From Escherichia coli (lineage in GTDB: Bacteria; Pseudomonadota; Gammaproteobacteria; Enterobacterales; Enterobacteriaceae): a stretch of DNA of 64,000 nt. The notes under the pieces are model-generated. The model worked only from the letters and a program-made list of their open reading frames with translations. It did no database searches and was not told where the DNA came from. Shown here piece by piece: positions 31,926 to 32,026 of this stretch. Position numbers and translations under genes: made by a program. Positions within the stretch are counted from its first letter, which is position 1; every line of letters begins with the position of its first letter. The stretch lies in the NCBI RefSeq assembly GCF_041248615.1, contig NZ_CP158426.1, one strand, 5' to 3'.

Positions 31926-32026
31926 TTTTTATCTAAAGGGCTTTAGACATTTTTGATACCTTTTTCATCTCTAAAAAAGTGTAATTTTTATCTAAAGGGG
32001 CTTTAGACATTTTTTACACCTTTTTC
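31926..32026. repeat. Two copies of a roughly 40-bp direct repeat, period about 60 bp
   Basis: TTTTTATCTAAAGGGCTTTAGACATTTTTGATACCTTTTTC and TTTTTATCTAAAGGGGCTTTAGACATTTTTTACACCTTTTTC. Confidence 0.7.

Follow-up and report, generated by a model that had tools for sequence, protein, structure and literature searches.

What is the function, if any, of two nearly identical repeats that lie a short distance upstream of a strong promoter in a genomic island of Escherichia coli? An earlier note on the 64-kb stretch of DNA analysed here (the window) had described them as two direct copies about 60 bp apart. Repeat search and self-BLAST found two near-identical direct copies where that note had placed them, and the consensus that it gave was correct. 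The start-to-start spacing, from two direct-repeat families in the repeat search, is 60 and 59 nt. Self-BLAST aligns positions 31913-31966 with 31972-32026 at 48 of 55 positions (87%, E 5e-12), and in a global alignment the copies differ by six substitutions and one G indel. Because the copies are head to tail (copy 1, 59 bp, 31913-31971, delimited by repeat search, self-BLAST and folding; copy 2, 60 bp, 31972-32031, delimited by repeat search, self-BLAST and alignment), they represent a tandem duplication of a 59/60-bp unit, not two separate sites 60 bp apart.

Each repeat unit is a 48-nt imperfect palindrome. The earlier note had seen an internal dyad in each copy, and there is indeed one, able to form a hairpin, but it is this extended palindrome and not the 6-bp AAAGGG/CTTTAG pair that the note proposed. 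In copy 1 (31916-31963) the palindrome reads AAAGGTATCA-TTTTTA-TCTAAAG-GG-CTTTAGA-CATTTTT-GATACCTTT and is followed by five Ts; its arms (31916-31938 and 31941-31963) are 23 nt each and 78% complementary. From the base upwards, a 10-bp outer stem (AAAGGTATCA/TGATACCTTT in copy 1) leads through a T-rich 6x6 internal loop to an inner stem of 6-7 bp (TCTAAAG/CTTTAGA) and a centre of GG or GGG. The palindrome in copy 2 (approximately 31974-32025) has the same 31-bp core with GGG rather than GG as its spacer. Its outer arms, GTGTAA/TTACAC, contain two compensatory pairs relative to copy 1 (A:T to G:C, and C:G to A:T) and one A.C, which becomes G.U on the minus strand. These arms are an inverted pair of TTACAC, and the WTTACAY motif is locally enriched, with 10 of its 31 hits in the 64-kb window falling in 31054-32493. 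Copy 2 is flanked by A6 on its 5' side and T5 on its 3' side.

The repeats are inside a low-GC island (38-44% GC) that adjoins the tRNA-Gly gene glyU. The window is chromosomal DNA; its features include OmrA, OmrB and tRNA-Gly(CCC) at 28659-28732, and it has a 100% match to NZ_LT599825. There is no credible ORF on either strand in the 2.37-kb stretch from 30995 to 33365, which is bounded by a minus-strand gene for a 183-aa serine recombinase of the DNA-invertase family (Hin/Gin-like; 30443-30994). An IS1 on the minus strand (33521-34218) cuts off the island after about 140 bp of its first gene; the window lacks genes for Rep, capsid and integrase, and the ETT2-region genes yqeH and yqeG are found beyond IS1. 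The island in this genome is a remnant, defunct through the IS1 truncation. Since the truncation probably leaves the element inactive here, any function of the repeats in this strain would be vestigial.

Related islands give an idea of what the intact element encodes. That of O26:H11 strain 97-3250 begins with the 183-aa serine recombinase and 2.3 kb of non-coding DNA, followed by a 60-aa protein, a small RHH-like protein, a 221-aa O-like/HTH_36 replication initiator and several small genes. Next comes a gene for a 123-aa protein and, immediately after it, one for a major capsid protein (Phage_cap_E, 342 aa), in the same order as the D and E genes of phage lambda. These are followed by an 85-aa ORF, which looks HTH-like by eye and has no Pfam or PHROG match, and finally by a 613-aa tape-measure-like protein and a tyrosine integrase. 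Such intact relatives resemble a small phage satellite or a defective prophage. Of 5426 complete E. coli genomes, 707 (about 13%) contain the non-coding DNA of the right-hand part of the island family, and family members are inserted next to tRNA-Gly, tRNA-Thr or tRNA-Leu. A limited literature search found nothing specific on the family.

The repeats belong to an exchangeable, ORF-free segment of the left-hand module (31406-32203) that also carries a promoter and that we found in 74-75 E. coli genomes at at least 95% identity. In six other family members (L006-L010 and L043) about 200 bp of unrelated sequence with more origin iterons replaces this segment. On one side, the left module is joined to either of two unrelated right modules, one with TTCC-N8-GGAA iterons and the 221-aa Rep, the other with a 495-aa DEAD-helicase-like protein. 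Between these two types, the products of the first genes, a protein of 60-76 aa and one that is RHH-like, share only 38-41% identity. On its other side there is either the serine recombinase or an unrelated tyrosine recombinase (192 aa), and the recombinase-proximal DNA (30995-31230) differs between the recombinase types. We rejected inverted paralogy of 31406-31915 with the right-hand region: the local alignment score was 44, compared with 27.7 +/- 4.3 and a maximum of 50 for shuffled sequences. A profile search with nhmmer for the same relationship gave weak hits of mixed strand (E 0.14-2.2), indicating shared motifs without showing homology.

The promoter, which we call P_R, was identified by a promoter scan on the plus strand at 32171-32200 (TTGACA-18-TATAGT) and matches 11 of 12 consensus positions. 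Its -35 hexamer begins 145 bp beyond position 32026, the end of copy 2, in agreement with the earlier statement that the repeats are roughly 150 bp upstream of a strong promoter. The predicted start of transcription, at about 32204-32206, is the exact junction of the left module with the alternative right modules. Directly downstream, on the plus strand, are tandem 23-bp iterons (TTCCTACCTACCCAGGAAATGAG, 2.3 copies, 32207-32259), each with a TTCCT/AGGAA dyad and predicted to be the Rep-binding part of an origin. They are followed, also on the plus strand, by an AT-rich tract (32260-32325) and a palindrome, AGGGATA...TATCCCT (32327-32360), whose counterpart in L006 is perfect, with 14-bp arms. 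This succession of iterons, AT-rich tract and palindrome is that of the lambda origin. Where the Rep of a family member differs, so do its iterons (TAACAGAA-N-CTGTTA). In the position upstream of the iterons, related elements have other palindromes, TATCA-N4-TGATA (one or two copies) or ATGTAAC-N5-GTTACAT, which suggests that the variants may each carry their own set of sites there. The repeat units themselves are not origin iterons, because they accompany two different Reps, the O-like one of 221 aa and the helicase-like one of 495 aa; moreover, there are only one or two copies of them, and the true iterons are those at 32207-32259.

The interval between the repeats and P_R contains several other features, read from the sequence unless stated otherwise. 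A small palindrome or hairpin, TGTGCA-AG-ACACT-TACC-AGTGT-GCACA, lies directly 3' of copy 2 (32027-32053). Part of it, CACTTACCAGTG, resembles CACTTTTTACCGTATAGTG in the promoter, and in L003-type alleles a 146-bp deletion (32049-32194) joins CACTTACCAGTG and CACTTTTTACCGTATAGTG, removing the promoter and keeping the repeat palindrome. A second palindrome, ATTGTTAA-N15-TTAACAAT (32101-32131), lies between P_R and a weak leftward promoter-like site found in the promoter scan (TTAACA-17-AAAAAT, 9 of 12 positions, minus strand, 32108 to 32080). A new promoter created at the duplication junction was rejected: the candidate, TTGATA-N21-TGTAAT, is wrongly spaced and does not have the A that is needed at -11. 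We also rejected a small protein gene. The minus-strand ATG in each core opens either MSKAL* (5 aa) or an ORF of 24-25 aa, and the reading frame is not conserved because it depends on a G3 or G4 centre and on copy number.

If the pair of repeats were important as a pair, then its copy number and spacing should be conserved, a comparison that the earlier note had suggested. They are not. The repeat unit is present in 74 of 5426 complete E. coli genomes; a query specific for the junction found the two-copy allele in exactly 19 of these, and the other 55 have one copy. The absence of the repeats from otherwise identical islands, which the earlier note had regarded as evidence against a role, is nearly what is seen for the pair, given that the apparently intact, 99.6% identical islands of O26:H11 have a single copy; but at least one copy is retained in all 74 carriers. 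The O26 copy is a chimera in which the left arm of copy 1 is joined to the right arm of copy 2, the exact product expected from exchange within the identical 31-bp core. Other one-copy alleles have matched arms of the copy-1 type with a G3 or G4 centre (L003, L020-L022) or copy-1-type arms that carry a single mismatch (L004, L023). Among intact carriers, UPEC132 has two copies and G3X16-2 one matched copy. Most related islands have one copy only, so the pair is a dispensable and recent duplication, in tandem, of one palindromic cis-element. The duplication, and its loss in O26, probably occurred by slippage or by recombination between identical cores, and the number of copies is not critical.

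The repeat unit appears to be confined to E. coli: we found nothing like it outside this species in the databases searched. Matches in IMG/VR were chance matches only, JGI metagenomes yielded only alleles identical to those in E. coli plus chance matches, and about 100,000 GTDB species genomes gave one match, in an unrelated Flavobacteriaceae MAG, at about chance level (estimate ~0.5). The phage and plasmid collections contained no similar DNA.

These properties raise the possibility that the repeat has no present function and is a quasi-palindrome in a neutral spacer, duplicated by replication slippage or unequal recombination, with the compensatory changes introduced by intrastrand template switching. 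The polymorphic copy number, the exact fit of the O26 allele to recombination between identical cores, the tolerance of an arm mismatch in L004 and L023, the restriction of the sequence to one narrow E. coli lineage of the module, and the defunct state of the island in the window are all consistent with this explanation. We nevertheless regard it as rather doubtful, because every carrier keeps at least one copy, the core is invariant even though the flanks differ, and a 9-mer from the core recurs nearby far more often than expected by chance.

The core is where the two copies agree completely. All six substitutions fall within the flanking 24 of about 54 aligned positions, and the probability that they would spare the 31-bp core if spread evenly is about 0.008. 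At the centre of each core is a smaller palindrome, TCTAAAG-GG-CTTTAGA in copy 1 (31932-31947) and TCTAAAG-GGG-CTTTAGA in copy 2 (31991-32007), that reads TCTAAAGCC on the minus strand. Two more TCTAAAGCC sites, both on the plus strand, precede the promoter: one at 32067-32075, about -136 from the predicted start of P_R, and one at 32143-32151, about -60, within a small palindrome, CTTAGA-CGA-TCTAAG (32133-32148). In a first-order Markov simulation, the probability of at least two extra exact copies of TCTAAAGCC in 600 bp of flanking DNA was about 8.5e-5. Similarly, the TCTAAAG heptamer occurs nine times in the 64-kb window, with six of these occurrences inside 218 bp. The motif is specific to the module, with 2-4 copies within 210 bp at every promoter-bearing locus and none in family members that have other left modules. 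The invariant core and the two extra 9-mers point to sequence-specific recognition, as far as sequence can indicate it, rather than to mere structure.

We therefore favor, with low confidence, a reading to which we assign a probability of about 0.35 and in which the repeats would be module-specific DNA recognition sites that, with the two isolated TCTAAAGCC sites, modulate P_R and hence the firing of the origin. The element would be the 48-bp imperfect palindrome with its 16-17-bp core, TCTAAAG-GG(G)-CTTTAGA, each core being one of four TCTAAAGCC sites spread across roughly 210 bp upstream of the early promoter. These would act as operator or architectural sites through which a putative trans-acting factor modulates P_R. 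We infer both the binding of a factor at these sites and the regulation of P_R by that binding. Since P_R reads directly into the lambda-like origin, such a factor would also modulate origin firing, and since the module is devoid of ORFs, the factor would have to be supplied by another part of the element, by a helper phage or by the host.

Several observations bear on the recognition-site reading. In its favor, the intact-looking O26 element loses most of the hairpin yet keeps the core palindrome. With 7-bp arms and a 2-3-bp spacer, the core also has the size of dyad (about 14-20 bp) expected of an operator for a dimeric repressor. The suggestion in the earlier note of a candidate operator is thus partly upheld: the TCTAAAG(CC) half-site recurs twice before the promoter, but there is no cognate binding protein and no overlap with the promoter hexamers. 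The sites are at about -60, -136, -208 and -267. That this DNA ahead of a near-consensus promoter is a control region is clear, and to that extent the regulatory or structural role that the note suggested from position is supported. No site coincides with the -35 or the -10 hexamer. The isolated 9-mers at 32067 and 32143 are half-sites only. No DNA-binding protein, as would be expected for an operator set, is encoded in or linked to the left module, and an element-encoded cognate binder is not obvious given that the first genes of the two right modules are only distantly alike. Against recognition sites, L003-type alleles keep the repeat palindrome even though the promoter and both isolated 9-mers are deleted, and the outer 10-bp arms are complementary in both copies despite their different sequences, which binding at the core leaves unexplained. 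Moreover, the carriers are all identical to at least 95%, so that conservation may be due to recent common descent instead of selection.

None of the factor consensus sequences that we tried matched the sites. By eye, there was no convincing match to attC, dif, IHF, DnaA-box, Fis, LexA or OmrR/OmpR-like sequences. We rejected an array of P2 Cox boxes, as 31900-32210 (311 bp) contains three hits with at most one mismatch, compared with 1.3 +/- 1.1 in shuffled sequences, and these are spaced 60-76 bp apart with no 10-11-bp phasing.

The complementarity of the outer arms in both copies draws attention to the structure that the repeats can form. As plus-strand RNA the hairpins have predicted energies of -15.4 (copy 1) and -11.9 (copy 2) kcal/mol, significantly better than shuffled sequences. 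As minus-strand RNA they are at -18.0 and -18.6 kcal/mol (z about -6 to -7 relative to shuffled sequence), and when they are folded as DNA, z ranges from -2.4 to -6.4. The minus-strand RNA folds better because two A.C mismatches become G.U pairs. The O26 chimera, from which most of the long hairpin has been lost while the core palindrome is kept, folds at -4.6 kcal/mol as DNA (z -1.2) and at -10.0 and -13.9 kcal/mol as RNA, the minus strand again being the better.

Stable hairpins in this position could be transcription terminators. It is possible, although less probable than the recognition of sites controlling P_R, that each unit is a weak, roughly bidirectional factor-independent terminator or insulator between the upstream non-coding module and P_R and the origin, and that the duplication doubles it. 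The hairpins are significantly stable on both strands, on the plus strand all alleles examined have T5-T6 directly after the stem, where a U-tract should be, and the A6 on the 5' side of copy 2 gives U6 on the minus strand. In addition, there are G-C pairs at the base of the stem beside the T-run, a place just upstream of a strong promoter is typical of terminators, and the two compensatory base-pair changes keep the outer stem paired between copies. However, compensatory changes in DNA quasi-palindromes can also arise by template switching without selection, and a T-run next to a stem is weak evidence here since T-runs are frequent (seven in 110 bp). The stems themselves are unlike those of terminators: they are AU-rich, 42-48 nt long and interrupted by the 6x6 internal loop, and at -10.3 to -13.6 kcal/mol over 42 nt, with two to three G-C pairs in the outer stem, they fall short of what a terminator stem needs. 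A d'Aubenton-Carafa-type discriminant was -13 to -33 for all four combinations of strand and copy, in contrast to the terminators of OmrA and OmrB, also in the window, which score +33 to +34, and a consensus terminator scan does not call the hairpins. The element's bona fide terminator-like hairpin, at 33305-33343, contains GC pairs, and we found no convincing plus-strand promoter upstream of the repeats. Finally, termination leaves both the invariance of the core and the presence of two further 9-mers unaccounted for. Thus, the hairpin that the earlier note had offered as an alternative to an operator is real and significantly stable but is not a canonical terminator as RNA, and the hairpins are at best weak, leaky terminators.

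The better folding of the minus strand could indicate that the hairpins belong to a leftward non-coding RNA, transcribed from the promoter-like site at 32108 to 32080, either as 5' stem-loops or, in the two-copy allele, as the terminator of an RNA of about 100 nt. Such an RNA would hold the hairpins in its first 150 nt, and in the two-copy allele it would end in U6. The form of the 9-mer sites in the transcript, GGCUUUAGA, could pair with the hairpin arm UCUAAAGCC as an alternative structure. We consider this RNA unlikely. Both hairpins and the O26 allele do fold better as minus-strand RNA, the whole of 31406-32040 has z = -7.6 on the minus strand compared with -3.2 on the plus strand, copy 2 is followed by U6 on the minus strand, and the 9-mers are exactly complementary to one hairpin arm plus two loop nucleotides. 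However, the strand preference reflects just two G.U events, and the promoter-like site matches only 9 of 12 positions, with seven such sites in the region compared with 9.3 expected from shuffled sequences. Only the site at 32067 would be within the RNA, at its extreme 5' end; the site at 32143 would precede its start. In the common one-copy alleles the U-tract on the minus strand is poor (CCUUUAUAC), and L003-type alleles lack the promoter region altogether. There is no match in Rfam 15 at the gathering score, the sole overlapping hit being to rli30 (19.9 bits, E 1.6, gathering score 41), and there is no sequence diversity from which to judge covariation; a covariation test of the outer stem is impossible because all carriers are so similar. 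A large structured RNA of the GOLLD or ROOL kind was rejected, as there was no Rfam match at the gathering score or at E <= 5, and in the family alignment identical blocks alternate with replaced ones, a mosaic pattern instead of graded divergence.

A broader variant of these ideas, which we think improbable, is that the left module (31235-32203) is a self-contained regulatory unit of a hitherto undescribed family of E. coli phage-satellite-like elements, in which the hairpins and the complementary TCTAAAGCC/GGCUUUAGA sites would act either as RNA or as sensors of a helper-phage protein, and so determine whether P_R fires the lambda-like origin. This would amount to immunity or helper sensing without a protein repressor, in spirit like the CI-RNA immunity of P4 or the activation of P4 by Cox.

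Proximity to the Hin/Gin-family invertase gene, 920 bp away, suggests one more explanation: the element could be a recombination or single-strand-DNA site, such as a hix- or res-like target of the adjacent recombinase, a folded attC- or dif-like site, or a hairpin of the single-strand initiation or oriT type. The right arm of copy 1 contains TTTTTGATA, which is identical to 9 nt of the hixL half-site, and the hairpin is stable as single-stranded DNA. We consider this explanation very improbable. The left module is also paired with an unrelated tyrosine recombinase, the region contains no 26-bp hix-like dyad and no AAACC-NN-GGTTT core, the T5 of the left arm stands at the place where a hix partner would require A5, and there is no match in copy 2. 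A hix or gix site for the neighbouring invertase was therefore rejected, there being only the 9-nt half-site resemblance in the right arm of copy 1 and no such core at or near the repeats. On reading the sequence we found no R''/R' boxes (GTTRRRY) of attC, and a stronger candidate location for the sites of the recombinases themselves is the recombinase-proximal DNA at 30995-31230.

Taken alone, the pair of repeats is a minor polymorphism. It is valuable for the access it gives to the control region of a family of small integrative, satellite-like elements, in which 1.7-2.4 kb without ORFs separates a small recombinase gene from the early genes, and this family, with its long control region, is more interesting than the pair itself. 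Should a helper-phage or host factor bind the TCTAAAG sites, they would give a lead on how the family senses induction. If they are inert, then the locus offers a clear case from nature of a quasi-palindrome that has undergone duplication, compensatory change and deletion.

Several known systems resemble parts of this control region. As in the lambda origin, dyad-containing iterons are followed by an AT-rich tract and then a palindrome, an O-like initiator gene is located downstream, and a strong promoter reads into the origin; the lambda origin, however, is inside the initiator gene, whereas that of the island is in non-coding DNA. The repeat units are located outside the island's origin. The P2 Cox boxes upstream of the late promoter of satellite P4 have the consensus TTAAA(G/C)NC(A/C) and occur in arrays of four to six or more, 10-11 bp apart (PMC3936717). 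The minus-strand reading of the hairpin arms, CTAAAGCCC, matches this consensus at 7 of 8 specified positions, and it too is upstream of a satellite-type promoter. Bidirectional Rho-independent terminators share with the repeat units a hairpin with a 5' A-run and a 3' T-run, placed between transcription units and upstream of a promoter. In contrast to such terminators, the island stem is AU-rich and long, with a large internal loop and a far lower discriminant, and terminators need no invariant apical sequence, whereas the repeat units have one.

Quasi-palindromes and slippage-prone tandem duplications elsewhere in E. coli are similar in that an imperfect palindrome carries a tandem duplication, here of 59/60 bp, that can be deleted to one chimeric copy via the identical core, and in that template switching can produce paired "compensatory" changes. 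The island differs from these in its invariant core and two nearby exact 9-mers, which argue for some constraint on sequence. The operator sets of phage and satellite early promoters, such as lambda OR/OL and the P4 P_LL sites, have a cognate repressor gene adjacent to them and overlap the -35 and -10 hexamers, whereas the island sites have no such gene beside them, are 60-270 bp upstream, and would be bound only putatively, two of the four being embedded in extended 48-bp palindromes. What the island shares with these operator sets is a short dyad core repeated upstream of a strong early promoter, and sites that are swapped together with the promoter as a module.

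The island remnant in the window (30443-33510) and the intact island of O26:H11 strain 97-3250 (L002, 8544-20218) are members of a family of small, integrative, satellite-like elements. Gene order in these elements begins with a small serine or tyrosine recombinase, followed by 1.7-2.4 kb of ORF-free DNA and then by small genes. Next come an O-like or helicase-like Rep, a gpD-like protein and a Phage_cap_E capsid protein, a 613-amino-acid tape-measure-like protein, and the integrase. Among 5426 complete E. coli genomes, 707 carry the right-hand non-coding part of the element, which lies beside tRNA-Gly, tRNA-Thr or tRNA-Leu. 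The element DNA had no match in phage and plasmid collections, and a limited literature search found nothing specific on the family. In this genome the island is cut short by IS1 (33521-34218), and its first gene ends in ...CFDDALKR* rather than ...CFDDALKIIDELRKAEAEKE*.

Variable cargo fills the interval from the tRNA to the small recombinase (28733-30442 in the window; 20-1059 in the related locus L003). In the window it encodes a YecR-family lipoprotein and an 85-amino-acid protein; other alleles carry a DUF4145 protein and others. The interval is a possible hotspot of accessory or defence genes.

The ORF-free DNA is modular. The left module, which carries the strong promoter P_R, meets the right module at ~32204-32206, exactly the predicted transcription start of P_R. 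Two unrelated right modules are joined there: one consists of the origin and a 221-amino-acid Rep, and the other encodes a 495-amino-acid DEAD-helicase-like protein. This junction is a clean case of modular exchange at +1, as judged from the predicted start. A common allele (L003, L004, L023, L033 and L035) has a 146-bp deletion, corresponding to 32049-32194. Lost with it are the strong promoter, the central palindrome and the two isolated TCTAAAGCC sites. The end points of the deletion lie inside two similar sequences, CACTT..ACC..AGTG.

Several other motifs are found in the non-coding DNA. WTTACAY is locally enriched, with 10 of its 31 hits in the 64-kb window falling in 31054-32493. Copies within 31290-31425 include GCATTACATAAGG, GGAATTACATAGGG and GATTTACACGAG, and the related locus L010 has up to five copies of the ATTACACAGGG type. 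These copies look like another, putative set of binding sites. The regions 31640-31900 and 32420-32820 contain dense (GTT)n/(AAC)n and TTAG/CTAA tracts, and thus stop codons in all frames. They also contain small GC-rich palindromes or repeats (GAGCGTATAGCGAA and TGCGCTGTGCGC, two copies each), and the TGCGCTGTGCGC copies border blocks of 80-130 bp whose presence or absence varies among alleles. The folding z-score of 31406-32040 is -3.2 for the plus strand and -7.6 for the minus strand.

A second promoter (TTGACA-17-TATTGT) and its leader occupy 33219-33343. The leader is ~90 nt long and ends in a hairpin (33305-33331) and a T-run (33334-33343) immediately 5' of the first gene's ribosome-binding site. 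The hairpin stem has a compensatory A...U insertion in related elements, which points to a possible attenuator or small RNA. Terminator scoring used the OmrA and OmrB terminators as positive controls; these two sRNA genes (46881-46962 and 47077-47164) are ordinary features of the window.

In L002, an unannotated gap 5' of the gpD-like and capsid genes contains AGGGGGCGACCT (14796-14807), two mismatches from lambda cosN, GGGCGGCGACCT. It is a candidate cos site for the element. The palindrome of the origin-like region is perfect in L006 (2005-2037), with 14-bp arms, and family members with a 189-amino-acid Rep have other iterons, TAACAGAA-N-CTGTTA. In the window, the tandem-repeat module (32207-32360) lies directly 3' of the near-consensus promoter, and its 23-bp dyad iterons, AT-rich tract and palindrome follow one another in a layout similar to that of lambda ori.
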